From contig JADZEI010000066.1 in NCBI GenBank assembly GCA_020850615.1, forward strand, positions 1,943 to 65,942: a stretch of 64,000 bases of DNA, read 5' to 3'. Positions within the stretch are counted from its first letter, which is position 1. The number at the start of each line of letters is the position of its first letter. A program made the translations under genes and the position numbers. The DNA is from Dehalococcoidia bacterium. Lineage in GTDB: Bacteria; Chloroflexota; Dehalococcoidia; Tepidiformales; Tepidiformaceae. The notes beneath the pieces are model-generated. The model was given only the letters and a program-made list of their open reading frames with translations, did no database searches and had not been told where the DNA came from. Of the stretch, positions 1 through 63,925 are shown one piece after another.

Positions 1-720
1 GCTGGCCGGCCGCGCCCGCATCCCCGCGACACGCCCCGCCATCCCGGGCGAAGGCGTCCCCGCGGCCGAGCAGCGCGTCCAGCTATAGGGCGATCGGAGC
101 CGCGACCGTACGGAAGCGGAGGGCCGCACCCCGGTCCCACCGCCCCGCGCCAGCCCGCACGCCCGCCAAACCAGGTGTAGCCGGCGCCCCTTGTGGGCGC
201 GAGCGTCTAAGCCCAACGGCTGCCCCACCGCCAGGCACTGCCCCACCCCGGCACCTCCGCCACCGCGCCAGCGCGCGACACCGCCCGCCCCGGGACGCGC
301 GGCCCCACACGCACGCGGCCGGCCGGTCGCGGAGCTCCCGCCCTCGGTCGAGGCTGCCGCGGGGCATGATCCCTGGGGCCGCAGAGCCGATGCTCTGCGG
401 CTACGCCTGCGGCGCCACAGCCGGTCGCCCGCCGCGCGAGACGCCCGCCGCGCGATCAGTAGCGCGCGCGTGAGCAAGCGCTCGGTCGCACCCCGGCACC
501 TCCGCCTCGCGACCGCCCGCGACCGCCCGACCGTCCGCCCGGCGGCGCGACCGCCCACCCGGGGGCGCGGCCCCACACGCACGCGGCCGGCCGGTCGCGG
601 AGCTCCCGCCCTCGGTCACGGGCTGCCGCGGGGCATGCGTTGGGCTGGCGCCAGCGCCCACGAGGGGCGCGGCTACGCCTGCGGCGCCGTCCCACCCCCG
701 ACCGCCGTCAGGGAACTCCC
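1..720. repeat. intergenic REP cluster
   Basis: A2 REP forward 177-223. B REP reverse 364-416 (stem variant CCGCAGAGC/GCTCTGCGG). A1 REP reverse 633-676. Two copies of the A1 3' extension (…GGCCGGTCGCGGAGCTCCCGCCCTCGGTC…CTGCCGCGGGGCAT) at ~300-363 and ~575-632. Confidence 0.85.
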
Positions 721-3435: not shown

Positions 3436-3835
3436 CCGCCGAGCATACGCCGCGCCCCCGGTTCATCCCATGACCGGTGTCACCTGCGTGTGGGGCGGGC
3501 TGCCCGGGCCCCTGCGCGGCGCAGCCGGTGTAGCCGGCGCCCCTTGTGGGCGCGAGCGTCTAAGCCCAACGCATGCCACACCACCAGGCCCCTCCCCCAG
3601 CCCGGCGACACGGCGGCCGCGCCAGCGCGAGCATCAGTGGCGCGACCGGCCGAGGGAGCGCTCGCCGCACCCCGGCACTACCGCCCCGCGCCAGCGCGCG
3701 AGACCCTCGCCCACGCGTCCGGCCGGTCGCTGCGCTCCCGCCCTCGGTCGAGGGCTGCCGCGGTGCATCCGTTGGGCTAACGCCAGCGCCCACGAGGGGC
3801 GCGGCTACGCCTCTACGCCTCACTCCACCCGCGCG
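3436..3835. repeat. intergenic REP cluster
   Basis: A2 forward 3530-3576, whose long form runs to ~3700 and includes CATCAGTGGCGCGACCGGCCGAGGGAGCGCTC. A1 reverse 3767-3810 with extension. Octamer module 3807-3835 abuts the Sua5 stop. Confidence 0.85.
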
Positions 3836-7144: not shown

Positions 7145-8357
7145 GGGCGTAGAGGCGTGAAGGAGGGGCGTAAAGGCGTAAAGGCGTAGAGTGGGCGTCC
7201 GCCGCGAATCCGAGCCGCGCGCGTGAGCGAGCGGAGGCGGACCCCCAGCACCGGCGCCCCGCGGTAGCCCGCGACCCCTTCTCCCCGCGGCCCGTACACC
7301 CAACGCGACGCGCCCACCGCGGAGCGCGCGACACGGCACCGACCGGGTGTAGCCGGCGCCCCTTGTGGGCGCGAGCGTCTAAGCCAACCGATGTGGCATC
7401 GGAGGCCGCCCCGCCCCGGCGACCCTGTCCCGGTATCGCCACGCCACCCCTCCGCGGCCGGGCTGTCGCTACGCTCCCGCCCTCGCTCTGGGCTACCGCG
7501 GTGTATCCGTTGGGCTGACGCCAGCGCCCACGAGGGGCGCGGCTACGGCTTCGCCCCGCGGCGCCGCCGGGGCCGAGGAATCGTCGCCAGGCTTCATCGA
7601 TCCACGCATCGCGGGTAGCTGCGAGATCCTGTACGGCTCGCGATACCGCGGGTCATCCTCGGGAAGCGGGCCCCTGTTGATAACGCGACCCATCGTCTGC
7701 CTCGTTCCAGTCTTCGAGCCGAAGGTCTGCGTCGGCCCGGATACTGTCCACTATATCGTCCCCGGTAACGCCCTCGGACGCCGTTCAACCACCGCTGCAA
7801 GTTCGCCCTCACGCCCGTCCCTCCGTCGCCCGGGGTAGGGGCGAATCCGAGCCGCGTGCGTGAGCGAGCGGAGGCGCACCCCCCAGCACCGGCGCCCCGC
7901 GGTAGCCCGCGACCCCTTCTCCCCCCGGCCCGTACACCCCCGCGACGCGCCCACCGCGGAGCGCGCGACACGGCACCGACCGGGTATAGCCCGCGACCCC
8001 TTCTCCCCCCGGCCCGTACACCCCCGCGACGCGCCCACCGCGGAGCGCGCGACACGGCACCGACCGGGTGTAGCCGGCGCCCCTTGTGGGCGCGAGCGTC
8101 TAAGCCAACGGATGTGGCATCGAAGATCGCCCCACCCCGGCGACCCTGCACCGCGAAAGCGCCCGGGGGCCACACCCAGCCATGCGGCCGGCCCGTCGCT
8201 ACGCTCCCGCCCTCGCGTTGGGCTACCGCTGTGCATGACACGGACAATCCCGCGGAGCAATGCTCCGCGGCTACGCCTGCGGCGCCGCGACGCCCGCCCC
8301 TTCGCGCCTTTACTTTGGAGTAGGGTGCTTCGCCCGGCCGCGCGCTACATTCGGCCT
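7144..8357. repeat. 1.2-kb non-coding repeat mosaic
   Basis: Octamer array 7144-7200. Composite unit 7205-7393 repeated at 7843-8114. A2 forward 7349-7393 and 8070-8114. A1 reverse 7503-7546. 84-bp tandem units 7903-7986 / 7987-8070. B reverse 8233-8286. A less GC-rich unique segment lies at 7560-7800. Confidence 0.85.
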
Positions 8358-12249: not shown

Positions 12250-12534
12250 TGCCCCGCGATAGCCCGCGAGCACTCGCCCAGGGGACGCGGACCACACCTG
12301 CCCTGCCGGCCGGTCGCTGCGCTTCCGCCCTCGGGCTGCGGGCTGCCGCGAGCATCCGTTTGGCGGCGCCAGCGCCCACGAGGGGCGCGGCTACGGCTCC
12401 GCCACTCGCTGCCGCGCGGCATGGCACGGACAATCCCGCGGAGCCGGTGCTCCGCGACTACGTCTGCGGCGCTTCGGCGGACGCCCCACCCCACGCCTTT
12501 ACGCCTTTCCCCCTCCCCTGTAGCGTCCCCCGCG
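12250..12534. repeat. intergenic REP cluster
   Basis: A1 reverse 12352-12394 with extension 12300-12351. B reverse 12419-12472. Degenerate octamer module 12481-12510. Confidence 0.8.
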
Positions 12535-19449: not shown

Positions 19450-19776
19450 GGGGCCGCCGGCAGCGCGAGGCGAAGCCGTAGCCGCGGAGCAATGCTCCGC
19501 GGGATTTCCGTGCCATGCCGCGCGGCAGCGTGCGAGGCACCCTCACCGCAACCCGGCGACCCGGCGGCTGCGTCAGCGCGCGACACCGCCCCACCGGGTG
19601 TAGCCGGCGCCCCTTGTGGGCGCGAGCGTCAGCCCAACGGATGCACCACCGCCAGGCACTGCCCGAACCCGGTGACACCGTCGCCACGCCAGCGGCAGGC
19701 GGAATGTCGCGAGCTGCCGCGCGGCCTGATCCTGGGGGTCGCGGAGCCAATGCTCCGCGACTACGCCTGCGGCGCC
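19450..19776. repeat. intergenic REP cluster
   Basis: B forward 19478-19529, A2 forward 19600-19644, B reverse 19713-19776. The last one overlaps the 3' end of Uma2 copy 1. Confidence 0.85.
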
Positions 19777-20384
19777 ACCGCGCGGAGGTCGCCGCGGAGC
19801 ATCGCGGCGACGTCGAGCCGGAGGCCGGGGAAGACCTCGCTGGCGATGACGCCCTCGGCGTCGGGGCGGAGCGCTTCATAGATGCCGTCGCGGAGGCGGA
19901 ACCAGTCGATCACCTCGTCGAAGACGCGCCAGGCGATGTACTCCTGGACGCCGCTGCGCCGGTAGACGTTCTTCTTCACGTGGAGGTCGTAGGACACCGA
20001 GCTCGCCGCGATTTCGACCACCAGCTCCGGCGAGCCGGCGAGCATGCGGTCATCATCGACCGCGCTCAGGCGCGAATCGACCGCTCGCAGCGCGAGGTCC
20101 GGCCGCGGCTCGTTGTCCGCGTCCAGCCGCAGGGTCGTCTCGGGCAGGAGCTCCACCCGGTCGGGGTGGTGGCCCACATAGGCACCGAGCCAGACGCTCA
20201 TCCGGCCGTGGGGGATGGAGTGATCGACGCTGACAGGTGAGGCCACGTAGACGATGCCCTCCACGAGCTCGCATTTGCGCGGGTCGCCCTCGTAGCGCCG
20301 CTCGAACTCCGCGCGCGTCATCCGGTCGCCGCTTTGGAGCGGCGGCGTGCGTGGCAGGGCAAGGCTCTGTGGCTCCGCGACCAT
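19761..20384 (-). CDS. Uma2-family (DUF820) putative endonuclease, copy 1 of tandem pair
   Basis: 207-aa ORF. [12 protein letters not shown]…PDLAL…[32 protein letters not shown] has the PD-(D/E)xK-like Uma2 pattern. The last 5 codons plus stop lie in a REP element. Confidence 0.85.
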   Translation of the reverse strand: [207 protein letters not shown]

Positions 20385-20405
20385 GCCCCCAGTGTACCGG
20401 ATGGC

Positions 20406-21032
20406 CTACCCCGTGATGCGCGCGAGCACCGCGCGGAGGTCGCCGCGGAGCATCGCGGCGACGTCGAGCCGGAGGCCGGGGAAGACCTCGCTGGCGATGA
20501 CGCCCTCGGCGTCGGGGCGGAGCTCTTCGTAGACGCCGTCGCGGAGCCGGAACCAGTCGATCACCTCGTCGAAGACGCGCCAGGCGATGTACTCCTGGAC
20601 GCCGCTGCGCCGGTAGACGTTCTTCTTCACGTGGAGGTCGTACGACACGGAGCTCGCTGCGATTTCGACGACCAGCTCCGGCGGGCCGGACGGGATGCCA
20701 TCGATGCCGACGACGCTCGACCCGGTGATGCGCCGGAGGGCGATGTCGGGCTGCGGTTCGTTGTCGCCGTCGAGGCGGAAGGTCGTGTTGTCGGCGACTT
20801 CGACCACATCCCGGTGGAGGTCGGCGTACACGGCGAGCCAGGCGACCATCCGGGCATGCGGCGTGCCGTGGTTCAAACTGACAGGTGAGGCCACGTAGAC
20901 GATGCCCTCCACGAGCTCGCATTTGCGCGGGTCGCCCTCGTAGCGCCGCTCGAACTCCGCGCGCGTCATCCGGTCGCCGCTTTGCAGCGGCGGCGTGCGT
21001 GGCAGGGCAAGGCTCTGTGGCTCCGCGACCAT
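20406..21032 (-). CDS. Uma2-family (DUF820) putative endonuclease, copy 2 of tandem pair
   Basis: ATG 21032 inside ORF 20406..21098. The N-terminal ~45 codons and the C-terminal ~90 codons are nearly identical at nucleotide level to copy 1, while the central third has diverged. Confidence 0.85.
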   Translation of the reverse strand: [208 protein letters not shown]

Positions 21033-21039
21033 GTCCCCA

Positions 21040-21369
21040 GTGTACCGGATGGCGGAAGGCCGGGGACGCGATTCTGGCTGCCGCGCAGCGCCGGGCATCA
21101 GTGGCGCGACCGGCCGAGGGAGCGCTCTGCCGTACCCCTGGCACCACGCCCCGCGCCAGCGCGCGACACTCTCACCCCCGCGGCCGGGCCGTCGCTACGC
21201 TCCTGCCCTCGGCCGTCCGGCTGCCGCGGGGCATCCGTTGGGCTGACGCCAGCGCCCACGAGGGGCGCGGCTACGGCTTCGCCGCCGGCTACCGCGAGGC
21301 ATGATCCCTGGGGCCGCGGAGCCGATGCTCCGCGACTACGGCTTCGCCCACTGGACGCGCAGCCGCTCG
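21040..21369. repeat. intergenic REP cluster
   Basis: A2 long-form tail (CATCAGTGGCGCGACCGGCCGAGGGAGCGCTC, ~21095-21130). A1 reverse 21231-21274 with extension. B reverse 21288-21347. Confidence 0.8.
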
Positions 21370-23766: not shown

Positions 23767-24201
23767 GGCCGGCGCCGCCGGAGGCGTAGTCGCGGAGCAC
23801 TGCTCCGCGGGATTGTCCGTGGCATGCCGCGCGGCAGCCCGCAACCATCGGATCGCGAACGCCGCACGTTGGCCCTCATCCCCCAACCCCTTCTCCCCTG
23901 CGGGGGAGAAGGGGAGCTCACGCGCTGACGCGGGGCACGGTGTCAGGGGTGCGTTGCCGGATGGATTGGACAATCGGTGCACCCCTCTCCCGCCGCAGCG
24001 GGAGAGGGGACGGGGGTGAGGGCTCGCGCGCTCCCCCGGACGCCCCTCGCCGGGGCGGGCCGCCACCTGCGATGCGACATCCGTCCGGCTTAGACGCGCC
24101 GCCGAGGCTGGGCTCGGCGGACTACCGCTGCGCGGCCCGAGGGGGCGAAGCCTCGCCCCCTCGCCGCGGACGTGCACTCTACGCCTCTACGCCTTCGCTC
24201 C
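23767..24201. repeat. intergenic REP cluster
   Basis: B forward 23786-23839. C hairpin 23872-23918 and inverted C hairpin 23982-24022. A3 reverse 24076-24125. Octamer module 24175-24201 abuts the nitroreductase stop. Confidence 0.85.
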
Positions 24202-25439: not shown

Positions 25440-26414
25440 ATGGCTCCGATGTCTCGAATCGTTGTCGCCGCCGACTTTGGCGGTACGAACCTGCGTTCCG
25501 CCCTCGTCGACGCCAACGGCGAAATCGTCGACCGCCTGGATGTGCGGACACCGGCCTCGGCCGCGCCGGCGGTCATCCTCTCCGATATCGTGAAGCTCTT
25601 CCGGGCGATCAGCGCGCGGTCGCCCGTGCCGCCGGTCGGCGCGGCGCTCGGCGTGCCAGGGCTCATCGATGCCGACGCGGGCAAGGTGATCATCGCGCCA
25701 AATGTGGCCGGGTTTCGCAACCTGGTCCTCACCGAGCCGATCGCGGCGGAGCTCGGCATCCCCGTGTTCATCGAAAACGACGCAAGCGCGGCCGCCCTCG
25801 GCGAGCACCGCTTCGGCGCAGGCCGTGGCACCCGCAACCTGCTCCACGCCACGCTCGGCACGGGCATCGGGGGCGGCATCGTCGTCGAAGGGCGGCTCTA
25901 CCGCGGCGCGAAGGGGCTCGCCGGCGAAATCGGGCACATCATCATCGACCCGGCCGGCCCGCGCTGTAACTGCGGCTCGCGCGGGTGCCTCGAATCCATG
26001 GTCAGTGGCGTCGCCTTTGCCGAACGCGCCCGCCGGATCATCGCCTCCGGGGCCTCGCCGGTGCTGCTCGAAATCGTCGGATACCGCGAACCGACGGCGG
26101 CGGACCTCCACGCCGCGGCGAAGGCGGGCGATCGCCAGTGCGAGGCGGAGATCCGGCACGGCGGCCACCTCCTCGGTCTCGGCCTGGGCAGCCTGGTGAA
26201 CGTGCTCAACCCCGAGGCGATCACCCTCAGCGGCGGCCTCCTCGCGATGGGCGACATGCTCCTCGCGCCGATGAAGGAGTCGATGTTCTCGATCGCCTAC
26301 GGCCCCGCCTCCGGGACGCTCGTGCGGCTCAGCACGCTCGGCGACGAAGCCGGCCTCCTCGGCGCCGCTGCCGTCGCATTCGAACGCGTGGAAAGCGTGG
26401 CGCCGCAGGCGTAG
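25440..26414 (+). CDS. ROK-family sugar kinase (glucokinase-like)
   Basis: ATG 25440 (or 25449) in ORF 23940..26414. ADFGGTNLR, ENDASAAALGE, LGTGIGGGIV, GEIGH, and the Zn motif CNCGSRGCLE. The last codons APQA plus TAG are supplied by a REP element. Confidence 0.9.
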   Translation: MAPMSRIVVAADFGGTNLRSALVDANGEIVDRLDVRTPASAAPAVILSDIVKLFRAISARSPVPPVGAALGVPGLIDADAGKVIIAPNVAGFRNLVLTEPIAAELGIPVFIENDASAAALGEHRFGAGRGTRNLLHATLGTGIGGGIVVEGRLYRGAKGLAGEIGHIIIDPAGPRCNCGSRGCLESMVSGVAFAERARRIIASGASPVLLEIVGYREPTAADLHAAAKAGDRQCEAEIRHGGHLLGLGLGSLVNVLNPEAITLSGGLLAMGDMLLAPMKESMFSIAYGPASGTLVRLSTLGDEAGLLGAAAVAFERVESVAPQA

Positions 26415-26657
26415 TCGCGGAGCATCGGCTCCGCGGCCCCCAGGATCAGGCGCCGCGGTAGCCCGCGACACCTTCGCCCCGGGGCGCACCCTCTCGCGAC
26501 GACGTGTCGCGCTGCTGCGTGACATGGGTGTAGGCTCCCCAGCGCCAGTGTGCGACACCTCCCGCGGGCTCTGAGGCGTGTTCGCAGGCTGCCGCCGGGC
26601 ATGGTACGGACAATCCCGCGGAGCAATGCTCCGCGGCTACGCCTGCGGCGCCGCCGC
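26399..26657. repeat. inverted doublet of B-class REPs (REPIN-like)
   Basis: B forward 26399-26469 and B reverse 26588-26652, each with the GGCGCCGCAGGC flank. They sit between two convergent genes and touch or overlap both stop codons. Confidence 0.85.
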
Positions 26658-27653: not shown

Positions 27654-28251
27654 GGGTTGCCGTCCTTGTGCGAACTGGGGCGCCGAAAACGCGGCCCCGG
27701 CGCGATTTTACGGCGGCGGATGGCTGCCGGCTTTCGGCTGTCGGCCGTCGGCTCTCGGCTCTCGGCTGTCGGCTGCTGCCTATCGGCTCTTGGGTGTCGG
27801 CCCGGCGACCGCACCAGCGCGGAGCGCGGGCCCTCACCCCCGTCCCCTCTCCCGTGCGCGGGAGAGGGGCGCCCCCGGATGCGGGACGCCCCGCAGCGAG
27901 GTGTAGCCGGTGCCCCTTGTGGGCACGAGCGCCAGCCCAACGGATGTGGCACCGAAGGCACCGTCCCACCCCGGCGCGCGCGGCGCCATCAGTGGCGCGA
28001 CCGGCCGAGGGAGCGCTCCCGCGCCCTCGGCGACCACGCCCCGGCGCCGCCCCGAAACCCCGCGCCCAGAGCTGACAGCCGATAGCCGACAGCTGACAGC
28101 CAAACGCCAACAGCCGAGCGCCATTCGGCGACGGCCGAACGGCCCAACGATTCCGGTACATCCGGCCTTGGCCCGCCGTGGCGGGCGGTGGCACCTTCCG
28201 GCACCATAGGGGTCTCCGTGGACCCATACATTCATCAATAGGCAGGGATAG
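27654..28251. repeat. composite element with inverted heptamer-array arms
   Basis: Heptamer array 27722-27801 (GGCTGTC type, ~11 units). C hairpin 27830-27870. A2 forward 27903-27946 (stem variant GTGCCC/GGGCAC), long form to ~28060. Inverted heptamer array 28071-28122 (GACAGCC type, ~7 units). Confidence 0.85.
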
Positions 28252-29822: not shown

Positions 29823-30165
29823 GTGCGGGCGACAGCGCCGCAGGCGTAGCCGCGCCCCTCGTGGGCGCTGGCGTCAGCCAAACGGATGCCTCGCGGTAGC
29901 CCACAACCGAGGGCGGGAGCCCCGCGACCGCCCGGCCGCAGGGGCGTGGGGCGTCGCGGACGGTGTCGCGGGCTGCGCGCGGCGGCGGTGCAGCGTCTCG
30001 GCCGAGCGCTCCCTATTGGTCGCGCCACCGATGGCGCCGCGCGCTCCGCGGTGTCCCCATCGCCGGGGTGCACGTCCCGGGGCGTGGCGCGGTCGCGGGC
30101 TACCGCGCGGCATGATCCTGGGGGCCGCGGAGCCGATGCTCCGCGACTACGCCTGCGGCGCTGTG
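29823..30165. repeat. intergenic REP cluster
   Basis: A1 forward 29846-29889 with extension to ~29935. A2-tail-like segment ~29995-30045. B reverse 30092-30161. Confidence 0.8.
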
Positions 30166-31538: not shown

Positions 31539-31780
31539 AGGCCGCGCAGCGGTAGTCCGCCGAGCGCGGCCTCGGCGGCGCGTCAGCCCAACGGATGCCG
31601 CACCGAAGGCACCGCCGCAACCCGGCGACACCCCCCGCGCCAGCGCGGGAGCTCCCTCTCCCGCCGCGGCGGGAGAGGGTTGGGGTGAGGGTTGCGCCGC
31701 GCCCTCAGCGAGGCCGGGGCGCCGGGATTCGCGGCGGACGCCCACTCTACGCCTCTACGCCTTTACGCCTCCACGCCTTA
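31539..31780. repeat. intergenic REP cluster
   Basis: A3 forward 31551-31597. Inverted C hairpin 31653-31692. Octamer module 31741-31780, which contains the ACAD stop codon. Confidence 0.85.
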
Positions 31781-34601: not shown

Positions 34602-35040
34602 GGCGACGGCCGCGGCCGTGTCTCGCCGTGGCAATTCACGATTCACGCGGGTTCGAGACGGTGTGGAGCGCTGGCGCGGCGCCGGGGCGAAGCCGTAGTC
34701 GCGGAGCATCGGCTCCGCGGCCCCCAGGATCATGTCCCGCGGTAGCCCGCGACGCGCGTGCGCGTGGTGCGCGGCGCCCTCACCCCGACCCTCTCCCGCT
34801 GCGGCGGGAGAGGGAGTTCGCGCTCCCCACACGCGTCGGTACCGCGTCAGCGGGGGGCGAAGCCGTAGTCGCGGAGCATCGGCTCCGCGGCCCCCAGGAT
34901 CATGTCCCACGGTAGCCCGCGACGCGCGTGCGCGTGGTGCGCGGCGCACGCCTCGGAGCCGCGACGACCGTGAGGACGCAGGCGAACGCACCCCGGCTGC
35001 ACGGGATTCGCGGCGGATGCCAACTCAACGCCTTCACACC
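34602..35040. repeat. intergenic REP cluster with 170-bp tandem
   Basis: Heptamers AATTCAC GATTCAC 34633-34647. B forward 34695-34752. C hairpin 34777-34816. B forward 34865-34922, i.e. the same unit repeated at a 170-bp period. Confidence 0.85.
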
Positions 35041-35675: not shown

Positions 35676-36000
35676 GGGCGGGCGAATTCACGGTCCACGA
35701 TTCACGATTCAAGCAGGTTTGAGACGGTGTGGAGCGCTGGCGCGGGGCCCTCACCCGGGCCCTCTCCCGCTGCGGCGGGCGAGGGAGCTCGCGCCTCCCG
35801 CACTCGTCGGTGCCGCATCAGCGCGGGGCGAAGCCGTAGTCGCGGAGCATCGGCTCCGCGGCCCCGAGGACCATGTCTCGCGGTAGCCCTCGACCGGCGC
35901 GGTCGTGCCGGGTTGGGGCGACCTTCGATGCCGCATCCGTTGGGCTTAGACGCACCGCCGAGGCTGGGCTCGGCGGACTACCGCTGCGCGGCCGGGCGCG
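35676..36000. repeat. intergenic REP cluster
   Basis: Heptamers 35685-35712 (ATTCACG type, 4 units), followed as at 34648 by GGTTTGAGACGGTGTGGAGCGCTGGCGCGG. C hairpin 35749-35787. B forward 35836-35893. A3 reverse 35933-35981. Confidence 0.85.
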
Positions 36001-40515: not shown

Positions 40516-41240
40516 CGCAGCCGGCGCGCGGAACGGCGCCGCAGGCGTAGCCGCGGAGCATTGCTCCGCGGGATTGTCCGAGCCATGCCGCGCGGCAGCC
40601 GGGAGTAACGTAGCCGCGCCCCTTGTGGGCGCTGGTGTCAGCCCAACGGATGCCCCGCGGCAGCCGTGCGCCCGAGGGCGGGAGCGCAGCGACCGGCCGG
40701 CCGCCTGGGGAGGCACCCTCATTCCCCGACCCCTTCTCCCCCTGCGGCGGGAGAAGGGGAGCTGCGCAGTGACGGGTCGTGGTGCCCTGGGTGCGGCGGA
40801 GCGCTCCCCCGGCCGGTCGCGCCACTGATGCGCGCTCCGCGGGCGCCGCGTGACCGGGATGGGGCGGTGCCTGGCGGTGTGGCATCCGTTGGGCTTAGAC
40901 GCTCGCGCCCACAAGGGGCGCCGGCTACACGCGGTTGGGGCGGCGTCGCGCGCTGACGCGGGGCGTGGTGCCAGGGGTGCCGGCGGAGCGCTCCCTCGGC
41001 CGGTCGCGCCACTGATGCGCGCTCCGCTGGCGCCGCGTGACCGGGTTGGGGCGGTGCCTGGCGGTGGGGCATCCGTTGGGCTTAGACGCTCGCGCCCACA
41101 AGGGGCGCCGGATACACCCGGTTGGGGACGGCGTCGCGCGCTGACGCGGGGCGGGGTGCCAGGGGTGGGGCGGAGCCCTCCCTCGGCAGGTCGCGCCACT
41201 GATTGCGCCGCGCCCGCCATGGCGGGCTGCGCTAGCATGG
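40516..41240. repeat. intergenic REP cluster with ~190-bp tandem array
   Basis: B forward 40535-40600. A1 forward 40610-40653 plus extension. C hairpin 40726-40761. A2 long form in reverse orientation repeated about 2.3 times at ~40775-41215 (cores 40882-40928 and 41069-41115). Confidence 0.85.
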
Positions 41241-41673: not shown

Positions 41674-42072
41674 CGCACCGCAGGCGTATCCGCGGAGCAT
41701 TGCTCCGCGGGACTGTCCGTGCCATGCCGCGCGGTAGCTGGAGGCGAAGCCGTAGCCGCGCCCCTCGTGGGCGCTGGCGCCAGCCCAACGGACGCACCGC
41801 GGCAGCCCGTGACCCGAGGGCGGGAGCGGAGCGACCGGCCGGACCGGGTGGTGCGGCAATCCACGGAGCAGAATCGCGCGCTGCCGCGGCGGCGGTGTGG
41901 TTCGGGGTGGGGCGGTGCCTGGCGGTGGGGCATCCGTTGGGCTTAGACGCTCGCGCCCGCAAGGGGCGCCGGCTACATCCCGGTGCCGGCGTTGCGGCGT
42001 TCCCGGGGGCCGGGTGTGCCGCGGGAGCCGGGCACCAACAGCCAACAGCTAAGAGCCAACCGCCCGCGCCGC
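41674..42072. repeat. intergenic REP cluster
   Basis: B forward 41686-41738 (head GTAT). A1 forward 41752-41795 plus extension. A2 reverse 41930-41976. Heptamers 42034-42062 (AGCCAAC type). Confidence 0.85.
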
Positions 42073-46980: not shown

Positions 46981-47828
46981 GTGTCCGTGGGGGTGGGTTG
47001 GTAGCGCGTGGGAACGGTGTTGTGTCTCGAATGGGAATGCGGATCCCGCGTGGGGAGCGGCGGGCGTCCCGGGCGGGAAGACGCGCGTGTCCCGGGTGGG
47101 AGTTTGTGTGGTGGCGCGCGGGCGTGGGGAGGTGGGGGCGAAAGCGTTCCGAGCGAGCCGGGCGGGCGCTCCGCTGCCGCCCTCGCAGCCCCCGACGCTG
47201 GTGGCCTATCGGTGTCGCATCCGTGGGCTTCCGCTCAGGGCCCACGAGGGGCCCGGGCTACGGCGCGGCGGCGCGCCGTTGGCGTGGGCGGGGCGGGAGT
47301 GGGGCAGCGGAAGCGAAAGGCGTTCCAGGCGAGCCGGGCGGGCGCTCCGCTGCCGCCCTCGCAGCCCCCGACGCTGGTGGCCTGTCGGTGTGGCATCCGT
47401 GGGCTTCCGCTCAGGGCCCACCAGGGGCCCGGGCTACGGCGCCGGGGCGCGCCGCCGGCGTGGGCGCGGCGGGAGTCGAGCGCGGCAAAGGGGCGGGCGG
47501 CGCCGTTCGGGTTTGAGGGTGGTGTCCCGGCCGGGAAGGGGTGTGCGTCCATGGTTGGGAGAGGTTCCCCTCTCCCTCTGGGAGAGGTTCCCCTCTCCCT
47601 CTGGGAGAGGGGTTAGGGGTGAGGGTGCGGTGCTCTGGGTGGCGTGTTGGCCCTCACCCCAGCCCTCTCCCAAAGAGAGAGGGAGCCCGGCCTCGTTGTT
47701 GCGGCGAACGGGCGTCCGGACCCCCATGTTGAGGGCAGTGTGAGCGGCGTTACGTCGACCGGGGCGCGAGGGGAACGGCACGGGGCCGGGTGACGTTGGA
47801 ACGGTGGAACCGTCCCCGGGAGGCTACT
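46981..47828. repeat. 0.85-kb non-coding repeat mosaic
   Basis: ~176-bp tandem (47141-47266 / 47316-47442), each unit carrying an A-type REP variant with a GGGCCC/GGGCCC stem (47217-47261, 47393-47437). 23-bp tandem hairpin GGGAGAGGTTCCCCTCTCCCTCT x2 at ~47566-47611. C hairpins up to ~47690. Confidence 0.8.
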
Positions 47829-52200: not shown

Positions 52201-52926
52201 CGCACGGGGGCGAGGCGAAGCCGTAGTCGCGGAGCATCGGCTCCGCGGGATTGTCCGTGCCATGCCCCGCGGTAGCCCGCGACACGCCGCCCGGGGGACG
52301 CGCGCACCCTCACCCCATCCCTCTCCCGCAGCGGCGGGAGAGGGAGCTGCGTCATAGCACCCACGTCACGCGTCAGCCTGCGGCGAAGCCGTAGTCGCGG
52401 AGCATCGGCTCCGCGGCCCCGAGTGCCCTGCCGCGCGGTAGCCCGCGACGATCGCCGCGCCGGGGCGCGTACCCCCACCCTCGGCCCTCTCCCGCTGCGG
52501 CGGGAGACGATGGCAAACGGCCAGGATGGCGGATGAAGATCCACGTTCGTCCGGGAGAGTCGGCGATTAGAGGGTGTGGGATATTCGGCACTGCGCGGCC
52601 ATTTTTCAGAGCAGAGGGAGCCAGCCCGCGCCATGAATCGGAGCCGCGCCGGTGAGGAAGCGGGCGACCGTGACCCGGTACTCCCGCCCCGCGGCAGCGC
52701 GAAGTCGCCCGCACTCGGTGCGCCCCGGGGCAAAGGTGTCGCGGGCTACCGCGTGGCATGATCCTCGGGGCCGCGGAGCCGATGCTCCGCGACTACGGGC
52801 TTCGCCCCCTGTCGGGCGGACTGATCCTGCGGGTTACGAAGGAGCTCGCGTTTGAACTCCTTCCACTCATCCCGCTCTTTCATTCGCGACCTCGTTCCTG
52901 CATGCCGGTTCAGGCGCGGCGTCGCC
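52201..52926. repeat. intergenic REP cluster with ~168-bp tandem
   Basis: B forward 52223-52282 plus C hairpin 52308-52346, repeated as B forward 52391-52449 plus degenerate C 52475-52507. B reverse 52738-52806. Confidence 0.85.
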
Positions 52927-59103: not shown

Positions 59104-59150
59104 CGCCACCCGGTGCCCCAAAGCACGATCCGTGCAAGAACCGGCGGAGC

Positions 59151-59885
59151 GTAGCCGCGCCCCTCGTGGGCGCTGGCGCCAGCCAAACGGATGCCGCCGC
59201 GTCAGCCAGCGCCGCCCCCACCGGCGTGTACACACGCGTCGCACAGACACGTACCATGCTCAACGTGCATTACCGGAGACCCATCCGGCTGCCCCCAGAG
59301 GTCTACGGCAACCCGGCGAACGTCTTTCACGTCGTCATCCGTGCGTTCCCCGGCCAATCGCCGTTCGAGCGGCCCGAGGTTGCTGGTGCCACCTGGGGAC
59401 TGCTGGACGAAGAGGCACGTCGCGATAGTGTGGTAATGGCGGCGGCGTGCCTGATGCCGGACCATCTGCACCTGCTGCTTCGTCCCAATCGAGGCAGCCT
59501 CGTCAGCTGGGTTGGCGCGTTCAAATCGGTTTCGACGCGCCGGGTATGGCAGACCGGCTATCGCGGCCGGCTCTGGCAACCCTCCTTCTGGGACCGTTGC
59601 CTCCGCGAGAACGAGTTCGACACGGCGAGGGCATACATCATCAACAACCCGGTTTCGGCGGGGCTGGTCGACGAGCCCGGTGACTGGCCCTGGACTGCGT
59701 GGTGGGATGACCCGGCGGATTGAGCGCGGCAGGCCCCGCCCGGGTGTGACCGTCACCGTGCCGTCCCGGGGGGTCACCGCCCTCGCTGAGCGAGCCGGGC
59801 GGTCGCGGAGCTCCCGGCCCTCGATCGAAGGCTGCCGCGGGGCATGGGTTGGGCTGACGCCAGCGCCCACGAGGGGCGCGGCTAC
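59151..59885 (+). mobile_element. REPtron: RAYT gene bracketed by inverted GTAG-hairpin REP copies
   Basis: REP class A1 forward at 59151-59194 (GTAGCCGCGCCCCTCGTGGGCGCTGGCGCCAGCCAAACGGATGC) and its reverse complement at 59842-59885, with GTAG/CTAC on the outside. Confidence 0.75.
59256..59723 (+). CDS. REP-associated tyrosine transposase (RAYT; IS200/IS605-like Y1 HUH enzyme)
   Basis: ATG 59256 in ORF 58965..59723. HUH motif in MPDHLHLLL. The catalytic-Tyr block ARAYIINNPVSAGLVDEPGDWPW matches the RAYT signature Y-x3-NPV-x-AGLV…WPW. The gene is flanked by inverted REP copies. Confidence 0.85.
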   Translation: MLNVHYRRPIRLPPEVYGNPANVFHVVIRAFPGQSPFERPEVAGATWGLLDEEARRDSVVMAAACLMPDHLHLLLRPNRGSLVSWVGAFKSVSTRRVWQTGYRGRLWQPSFWDRCLRENEFDTARAYIINNPVSAGLVDEPGDWPWTAWWDDPAD

Positions 59886-59984
59886 GCTCCGCCTGGTGGG
59901 GCGCGAGTGCCCCGCTCGCGGCGCGCCACCCTCAGGCGGGCGGGCCGGCGGGCGGATGGGCGCGGGGTCTCGTACACTCCGGGG

Positions 59985-63784: not shown

Positions 63785-63925
63785 ATTGCCGATTGTCGAT
63801 TGTCGATTGCCCCGGCCATCCAGGGGCGAAGCCGTAGCCGCGCCCCTCGTGGGCGCTCGCGCCAGCCCAACCCATGCCCCGCGGCAGCCATCGCCCGAGG
63901 GCAGGAGCGCAGCGACGGCCCGGCC
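63785..63925. repeat. heptamer array + A1 REP after the surface-protein gene
   Basis: GATTGTC-type heptamers 63785-63811. A1 forward 63834-63877 with the usual 3' extension to ~63925. Confidence 0.8.

Follow-up and report, generated by a model that had tools for sequence, protein, structure and literature searches.

REP elements (repetitive extragenic palindromes) bearing a GTAG tetranucleotide were catalogued by Di Nocera et al. in 2013 in more than 80 species from eight phyla, including the Chloroflexi (Thermomicrobium roseum GTAG-23), Planctomycetes, Cyanobacteria and Verrucomicrobia (PMC3733652). Most of the REP-bearing species presented REPtrons, in which the gene for a REP-associated tyrosine transposase (RAYT or TnpA-REP) accompanies the repeats, with repeat-specific REPtrons where several families coexist (PMC3733652), and tnpA-REP-like genes were subsequently reported by Quentin et al. 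in 2018 in over 25 % of the surveyed species (PMC6006769). A close comparison system for the locus described here is the Escherichia coli K-12 REPtron, composed of TnpA-REP (YafM; RAYT group 2, subclass 2.2; structure 4ER8) and the Y and Z2 REPs. A second reference is provided by the REPtrons of Pseudomonas, Stenotrophomonas and Marinomonas, with RAYTs of group 3 or subclass 2.5 and REP doublets forming hairpins (REPINs). Here we analyze a 64-kb stretch (hereafter, the window) of contig JADZEI010000066.1 from a Dehalococcoidia bacterium of the Tepidiformaceae (Chloroflexota; GCA_020850615.1), and a region close to its right-hand end that very probably constitutes a REPtron, with an apparently fixed RAYT gene, single-copy within the window, bracketed by inverted cognate repeats.

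The open reading frame (ORF) at the center of this region (59256-59723, + strand) is intact and encodes a 155-residue protein, which presents the HUH motif (PDHLHLLL) and the RAYT-type tyrosine block (AYIINNPVSAGLV...WPW) that had been pointed out in the initial sequence-only reading. Its key residues comprise the HUH histidines H70 and H72, Y127, N131 and a WQPSFWD motif. An alignment with 22 homologues revealed that LMPDHxH, Y127, N131 and P132 are invariant, and that W107 and Q108 are kept in at least 90 % of the homologues. N131 is located four residues past the tyrosine, like N119 of the E. coli protein, which is essential in vivo (PMC6006769). Profile searches matched the Pfam Y1_Tnp domain (41 bits, cut-off 23, E = 2.3e-10) and gave a score marginally short of the cut-off with the NCBIfam model for RAYTs, REP_Tyr_transpos (NF047646; 79.8 bits, cut-off 80.0, E = 1.7e-22), and several homologues carry the JGI annotation 'REP element-mobilizing transposase RayT'.

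By sequence, the closest relative of solved structure was E. coli TnpA-REP (4ER8), with both the HUH and the tyrosine blocks aligned (PDHLHLLL with PEHMHCIW, and AYIINNPV with DYIYINPV). An AlphaFold (AF2) model generated from the homologue alignment, with a mean predicted local distance difference test (pLDDT) score of 94, also returned 4ER8 as its best fold match in the PDB (template modeling score, TM, 0.66; root-mean-square deviation, rmsd, 3.0 Å), and the predicted structure shares with the E. coli enzyme the HUH-Y1 fold and a catalytic helix placed as in the 4ER8 monomer. The two proteins differ in that their identity is only about 21-30 % and in that the protein analyzed here ends near E. 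coli residue 143, lacking the C-terminal autoinhibitory tail. The absence of this tail and the presence of extra N-terminal residues are shared with group 3 RAYTs, and the protein appears to be group 3-like, as judged by its length and by its 39-47 % identity to homologues from the Pseudomonas group.

The RAYT gene lies between a forward copy (59151-59194, +) and the reverse complement (59842-59885, -) of a 44-nt element, with GTAG and CTAC outermost, and direct reading of the sequence bore out the coordinates and arrangement first proposed for these copies. The inverted repeat in fact exceeds 44 nt, with the sequence GGCGGAGC directly 5' of GTAG in both arms: at 59143-59150 (+), where the inverted repeat begins, and at 59886-59893 (-). 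The arms hence span 59143-59207 (+) and 59781-59893 (-). The left arm, a class A head in the classification detailed below, comprises GTAG, the stem GCC-GCGCCC, a CTCGT loop, the complementary stem GGGCGC-(T bulge)-GGC and a tail, GCCAGCCAAACGGATGC. The resulting 9-bp stem with its T bulge co-varies in the class B head at 27903, in class F and in the variants flanking a more distant RAYT (locus L162, see below). Beyond its head, the left arm retains only a degenerate instance of module t1 (CCGCGTCAGCC, consensus CCGCGGCAGCC; 59195-59207, +), which is the last part it has in common with other class A copies. The right arm consists of the complete module, approximately 110 nt long (head, t1 and t2), with t2 and t1 extending inward from the inverted head to about 59781 (59781-59841, -). 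In class A elements, t1 corresponds to ATGCCCCGCGGCAGCC and t2 to CGAGGGC(C)GGGAGC..CGCGACCG.CCGG. Among all the genes in the window, RAYT presents the strongest flanking inverted repeat (score 41), and it is the only RAYT-like ORF detected, with the class A arm sequence recurring nine more times without the gene. No Rfam families, sigma-70 promoters or intrinsic terminators were found around the RAYT gene. We considered whether the left-arm tail might be of class B type, making the REPtron a B...A doublet that encloses the gene, and rejected this because local alignments against all A and B tails yielded z < 1.5, with the exception of the short t1 motif.

An alternative explanation for this arrangement is that of an autonomous IS200-type insertion sequence, in which TnpA would mobilize the 750-bp unit in its entirety, with the hairpins as its ends. 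The protein does belong to the same Y1_Tnp superfamily, it would share with the TnpA proteins of the IS200/IS605 family (IS608, ISDra2) their chemistry and, by analogy, their recognition of a single-stranded DNA hairpin and a 5' tetranucleotide, and the structures of these transposases were matched with probability 1.0. Their superposition on the AF2 model is nonetheless poorer (rmsd 5.4-12 Å), the fold being nearer that of monomeric 4ER8, and the NCBIfam IS200 equivalog model scores 25.7 bits, against a threshold of 55 and against 79.8 bits for the RAYT model. The IS608 and ISDra2 TnpAs function only as dimers and mobilize the gene that encodes them, with asymmetric ends and many copies. The gene analyzed here is present once in 64 kb and is syntenic in a related strain at a synonymous divergence (dS) of 0.13, its arms are inverted on opposite strands instead of forming asymmetric same-strand left- and right-end hairpins, and the repeats are dispersed without it. 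The insertion-sequence reading is thus largely refuted and we regard it as extremely improbable. Both the profile scores and the arms contradict the notion, contemplated from the outset, that the ORF might be just a generic IS200 transposase devoid of REP association.

The repeats flanking the RAYT gene belong to a dense population of REP elements. A 28-nt class A head returned 11 instances in the window at no more than three mismatches, against an expectation of zero. Searches for GTAG next to a perfect hairpin identified 31 sites with gaps of up to 2 nt, compared to 0-5 in 20 Markov simulations, and 41 sites with gaps of up to 3 nt. Adding two copies with a degenerate GTAT tag brings the total to 43 heads (about two expected), distributed among classes A (11), B (9), F (2), E (3) and C/D (18). 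This amounts to 0.67 heads per kb, a high density that is nevertheless equaled locally in some of the other RAYT loci retrieved, and 7.6 % of the window corresponds to repeated DNA. The loop CTYGT is common to classes A, B and F, which present compensated stem changes (GCGCCC/GGGCGC, GTGCCC/GGGCAC and GGGCCC/GGGCCC), and this family of hairpins is represented outside the arms by nine A, nine B and two F copies, all of them intergenic. Class E has a distinct hairpin and the A/B tail, GCGTC(TA)AGCCCAACGGATGC, and module t1 is common to C/D and A; the REP classes are therefore built as mosaics from modules that they share. The original proposal of a multi-class system holds insofar as several classes are present, but these have modules in common. 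Likewise, the claim that the element or its close relatives occur at least 27 times stands only if classes beyond A and B are counted, since heads with either the A hairpin or the A tail number 22-25. A consensus fold of the whole 110-nt A element, as RNA or DNA, revealed no covariation support outside the head hairpin.

The distribution of these heads with respect to genes is far from uniform. Based on gene calls from a crude codon-usage model, all 43 heads (40 mapped first and three added later) fall outside predicted genes. Of the 42 intergenic regions with a length of at least 80 nt, 19 (45 %) contain heads. The head nearest a stop codon usually lies 10-160 nt after it, and in 20 of 22 cases its GTAG is sense with respect to the upstream gene, with the right arm of the REPtron as the sole real exception. 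The dispersed repeats are thus probably also transcribed as hairpins in 3' untranslated regions (3'-UTRs). Convergent gene pairs were observed to have outward-facing heads, often of different classes, as follows from heads sitting sense to the upstream gene. We also noted a strand switch among class A heads, which are all on - up to 21 kb and all on + from 29 kb onward. Replication direction, with an origin within the window, was considered as the cause of this pattern and discarded: GC skew was uninformative, and the orientation of the upstream genes explains it.

Given that 45 % of the larger intergenic regions hold REP heads, finding REPs beside any particular gene is common, and the juxtaposition observed here might be incidental, with a domesticated Y1 protein performing some other function on single-stranded DNA and not acting on REPs. 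Class A elements are present in 9 of the 57 internal intergenic regions of the window, and from the window counts the chance of a pre-specified gene having class A elements on both sides, facing outward, was calculated as approximately 0.006. That the right arm is the one real departure from the sense-strand rule also argues against coincidence, and so does the comparison with other genomes. A search of a genome collection confirmed 468 relatives of the RAYT protein, the nearest of which are encoded by metagenome-assembled genomes (MAGs) from the Chloroflexota (Tepidiformaceae, 51 %), with further relatives in Desulfobacterota, Planctomycetota, Acidobacteriota, Armatimonadota and Pseudomonas. 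Among the 61 homologous loci with enough flanking sequence, 31 presented a flanking inverted repeat at the score threshold of 20 or above, and in 18 of those 31 GTAG was located at or near the outer end of the arm (first ~10 nt), while of 300 random controls taken from these loci none reached that score. Homologues in other phyla are, in half of the cases, bracketed by inverted GTAG hairpins of their own, and flanking inverted repeats are thus commoner beside these genes than at random positions, in line with what the sequence-only reading required. Two Pseudomonas-group homologues (L041 and L078, 39-47 % identity) are flanked by GTAGGAG-type REPs. Together with the occurrence of the same hairpin beside a RAYT only 54 % identical, described next, these data make an incidental association very improbable.

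Two loci proved informative on the evolution of this region. The first (L163) is a metagenomic contig encoding a RAYT with 93 % identity in the same context, between the genes for a WYL/helix-turn-helix (HTH) regulator and pyruvate kinase. The dS of RAYT between both strains (0.129) is similar to that of the adjoining pyruvate kinase (0.135), with a ratio of nonsynonymous to synonymous divergence (dN/dS) of 0.28, and RAYT has therefore diverged along with its neighbors under purifying selection. Both arm heads and their GGCGGAGC prefix are identical in the two strains, leaving about 104 nt unchanged at a neutral divergence of about 13 %. The structural differences are both located at the arms (L163 95-315 and 985-1010, compared to 59120-59255 and 59886-59950 in the window), with the rest being collinear. 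In L163, the left arm has undergone a 95-nt tandem duplication that includes ~30 nt of upstream flank, and a different segment of 25 nt takes the place of 55 nt outside the right-hand GGCGGAGC, with homology breaking exactly at the outer edge of this sequence. In the second locus (L162), the RAYT shows 54 % identity and has a pair of REPs on each side (2815-2930 and 3500-3660), with hairpins that include a near-A/B form, GTAGCCGCGCCCCTTGTGGGCGCG, and a compensated variant, GTAGCCGTGCCCCTCGTGGGCACGG (GTGCCC/GGGCAC). The gene in L162 has an almost identical hairpin on its flanks; the hairpin family has therefore stayed with this clade of RAYTs, and in this locus the repeat appears to be better conserved than the enzyme.

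Additional searches delimited the distribution of the system. Exact-protein look-ups found nothing, and protein-cluster look-ups returned only MCC7365718.1 and one 93 % member. No synteny was found with distant homologues, and a search for plasmid carriers, including the T. roseum megaplasmid, produced two weak matches, neither of them in T. roseum. A metagenome scan for paralogous RAYTs that might serve classes C/D and E found nothing closer than 45 % identity. Other Chloroflexota RAYTs with about 45 % identity (L010, L012, L018 and L081) are flanked by heads that start with GTAGTCGCGGAGC, like class C; as their hairpins differ from those of class C, this link is only a hint.

The position of the dispersed heads, 10-160 nt past stop codons and sense in 20 of 22 cases, could also be read as indicating that the repeats are kept for a host function, as 3'-UTR hairpins, mRNA stabilizers or protein-binding sites, with RAYT as a relic. 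The 2013 survey found this bias as well and put forward RNA-level roles (PMC3733652), and the heads are conserved well past the neutral expectation. A relic would nonetheless be difficult to reconcile with an intact RAYT gene that conserves all catalytic residues and has a dN/dS of 0.28, with strain differences located exactly at the arms (the left one duplicated, the segment outside the right one replaced), or with the stable d(GCGNAGC)-type DNA mini-hairpin discussed below, which points to a single-stranded DNA stage. We consider this reading unlikely, although a host role for the repeats is compatible with, and not opposed to, their interpretation as the cognate repeats of the RAYT.

Several class A and B heads are arranged in pairs that may provide a clue to the mobile form of the element. 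Five B...A doublets, each with GTAG outermost and 200-500 nt in length, were identified, with outer limits at 177/676, 3530/3808, 7349/7546, 40610/40928 and 41752/41976. They comprise class B heads at 177-205 (+), 3530-3558 (+), 7349-7377 (+), 40900-40928 (-) and 41948-41976 (-), and the corresponding class A heads at 649-676 (-; a solo head paired with the B at 177), 3781-3808 (-), 7519-7546 (-), 40610-40637 (+; loop variant CTTGT) and 41752-41779 (+). Two of the doublets (3530/3808 and 7349/7546) fold into long hairpins, with z = -6.1 and -3.5. These doublets resemble REPINs or the Y/Z pairs of the E. coli bacterial interspersed mosaic elements (BIMEs), but they are longer than described REPINs and their partners are less alike.

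By analogy with the REPtrons of E. coli, Stenotrophomonas and Marinomonas (PMC3479197, PMC8266576), the monomeric enzyme would bind one REP strand folded in single-stranded DNA, recognizing both the 5' GTAG and the bulged hairpin GCC-GCGCCC/GGGCGC-T-GGC with its CTYGT loop. The enzyme would then cut nearby through a 5'-phosphotyrosine at Y127, with a metal held by H70 and H72, and the strands would be rejoined or transferred, so that REP units are copied or moved. The most likely mobile unit would be the inverted B...A doublet, of 200-500 nt and folding into a long hairpin. The RAYT gene itself would stay put, with the copies settling almost only downstream of genes.

The resulting picture agrees in its main features with the E. 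coli REPtron, where an imperfect hairpin with a bulge likewise carries GTAG 5' at its foot, inverted REPs bracket the gene, copies are extragenic and partner variants (Y and Z there, A and B here) form inverted doublets (PMC3479197, PMC6006769). The repeats differ from the E. coli REPs in being organized as 60-115-nt modules with shared tails, in being mostly preceded by a GNA mini-hairpin and in their doublet spacing of 200-500 nt. The group 3 and subclass 2.5 systems also have several REP classes per genome and inverted doublets as the likely mobile unit, but they belong to another phylum, the class A hairpin is bulged instead of perfect, and the doublets described here are much longer, with non-identical partners. 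The GTAG-23 repeats from T. roseum are similar by description, being GTAG-bearing hairpins, mostly grouped, of a GC-rich Chloroflexi genome, yet they are reported to form large blocks at few loci (PMC3733652), whereas those described here are spread over 19 of the 42 larger intergenic regions. Profiles, the match to the 4ER8 fold, the arms and the cross-genome association all support the core of the sequence-only reading, that of a RAYT within a REPtron in a REP-saturated genome. Its suggestion of a notable extension beyond the Proteobacteria does not hold, because Chloroflexi GTAG REPs and REPtrons were already published in 2013 (PMC3733652), and the known range of REPtrons remains unchanged. 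The locus is therefore genuine, but represents an ordinary instance of a system already known, with a single unusual detail.

This detail is a 9-nt mini-hairpin of the form XYC-GNA-GY'X' (GGCGAAGCC, GCCGCAGGC or CGCGCAGCG), placed immediately 5' of the GTAG of class A, C/D and E heads and absent from class B. Instances include those at 29837-29845, 21275-21283, 34686-34694 and 31543-31551, and the GGCGGAGC prefix of the REPtron arms (59143-59150) is the same structure shortened by one base. Mini-hairpins followed by GTAG were identified at 27 sites in the window, against an expectation of 0.14, with GGC-GAA-GCC (12), GCC-GCA-GGC (9) and CGC-GCA-GCG (3) as the recurrent forms, plus single variants. 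Stem changes are compensated and the loop is consistently GNA, and the two main forms are common to classes whose main hairpins differ. Most of the instances of these 9-mers across the window are REP-associated, indicating that the mini-hairpin is part of the element and not a pre-existing target. With a looser definition (a 7-nt core located 0-2 nt before GTAG), it precedes 28 of 41 heads in the window and only 6 of 516 GTAG-hairpin heads from 163 loci in other genomes; three of these six belong to the orthologous locus L163, two to a Chloroflexi MAG (L003) and one to L142.

DNA mini-hairpins of sequence d(GCGNAGC) are, according to the literature, exceptionally stable (PMC13037366, PMC3201870). 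No paper linking REPs with mini-hairpins was found in the literature searched, and this is the one feature of the locus that we did not find described. The mini-hairpin sits at the boundary of the element, where homology with L163 breaks, and a role in cleavage or joining is hence a reasonable guess. A more tentative idea, which we consider possible but rather doubtful, is that this lineage gained a class-independent mini-hairpin module marking the outer boundary, through which one RAYT could mobilize several classes. If the mini-hairpin were the cleavage or joining site, or a shared handle, the RAYT described here could mobilize A/B/F, E and C/D, and a single RAYT serving several classes would be an exception to the rule, as reported, that each REP family has one RAYT. 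In conjunction with module sharing, the mini-hairpin could help explain how RAYTs choose their cleavage site and how REP classes diversify.

Several observations weigh against the identification of the region as a REPtron acting on these repeats. The score against NF047646 falls 0.2 bit under the curated cut-off. The RAYT gene has a GC content of 65 % and a third-position GC content (GC3) of 78 %, compared to a GC3 of about 90 % for high-scoring neighboring genes, which could denote low expression or a foreign origin; the codon-usage gene caller, for its part, did not pick the gene. In E. coli, the C-terminal tail contacts the last two bases of GTAG, and recognition of this tetranucleotide may differ in a protein that lacks it. 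The identity of the heads between strains could result from gene conversion, and not from selection for recognition, and classes C/D and E have no RAYT of their own in the window. The locus nonetheless offers a clean and apparently intact candidate enzyme-substrate pair in a phylum without a biochemically studied RAYT, and its value as such lies in a short, tailless RAYT, strongly conserved heads and an orthologous locus that differs at the arms.

The remaining heads complete the map of the window. Class A heads outside doublets and the REPtron are located at 12367-12394 (-), 21247-21274 (-), 29846-29873 (+) and 63834-63861 (+). Class B, the partner variant of A, has the head GTAGCCGGCGCCCCTTGTGGGCGCGAGCG and is also present at 8070-8098 (+), 19600-19628 (+), 27903-27931 (+), with the compensatory stem GTGCCC/GGGCAC, and 41087-41115 (-), the latter with a degenerate GTAT tag and within a 187-nt tandem duplication. 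The two class F heads, with an A/B-like loop and the compensatory stem GGGCCC/GGGCCC, map to 47238-47261 (-) and 47414-47437 (-), the second lying in copy two of a 176-nt tandem repeat. Class E, with a head of the form GTAGT-CCGCCGAG-N6-CTCGGCGG followed by the A/B tail, is found at 24099-24125 (-), 31552-31578 (+) and 35955-35981 (-).

The C/D heads, which belong to the CGCGGAGC hairpin family, are distributed on the + strand at 19478-19502, 23786-23809, 26411-26435, 34695-34719, 34865-34889, 35836-35860, 40547-40571, 41686-41710 (degenerate GTAT tag), 52223-52247 and 52391-52415, and on the - strand at 379-404, 8250-8274, 12437-12461, 19739-19764, 21315-21339, 26616-26640, 30126-30150 and 52772-52796. 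For the heads at 26411-26435 and 19739-19764, the TAG of GTAG is the stop codon of the adjoining predicted gene. The crude gene calls place the ends of these two unrelated genes at 26397-26414 (+) and 19761-19778 (-), and both terminate in ...VAPQA*, encoded by the REP prefix GTGGCGCCGCAGGC and the TAG of GTAG, so that their last residues and stop codon come from the repeat.

The same intergenic mosaics contain a second family of palindromes, without GTAG and of the form CCTCTCCCGC-N4-GCGGGAGAGG, at 23984-24007, 27846-27867, 31655-31678, 34790-34813 and 52320-52343, with variants at 23890-23911 and 40733-40756. Intergenic tandem duplications with periods of 84-187 nt were also observed, most of them containing a REP head (40794-40940/40981-41127, 47141-47305/47317-47481, 7903-7986/7987-8070 and 34599-34766/34769-34936), in parallel to the 95-nt duplication of the left arm in L163. 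Lastly, a tandem duplication of coding sequence was detected between 19776-20385 and 20427-21033, two segments of ~600 nt with 83-92 % identity that cover the duplicated neighboring genes at 19761-20321 and 20406-20969 on the - strand.

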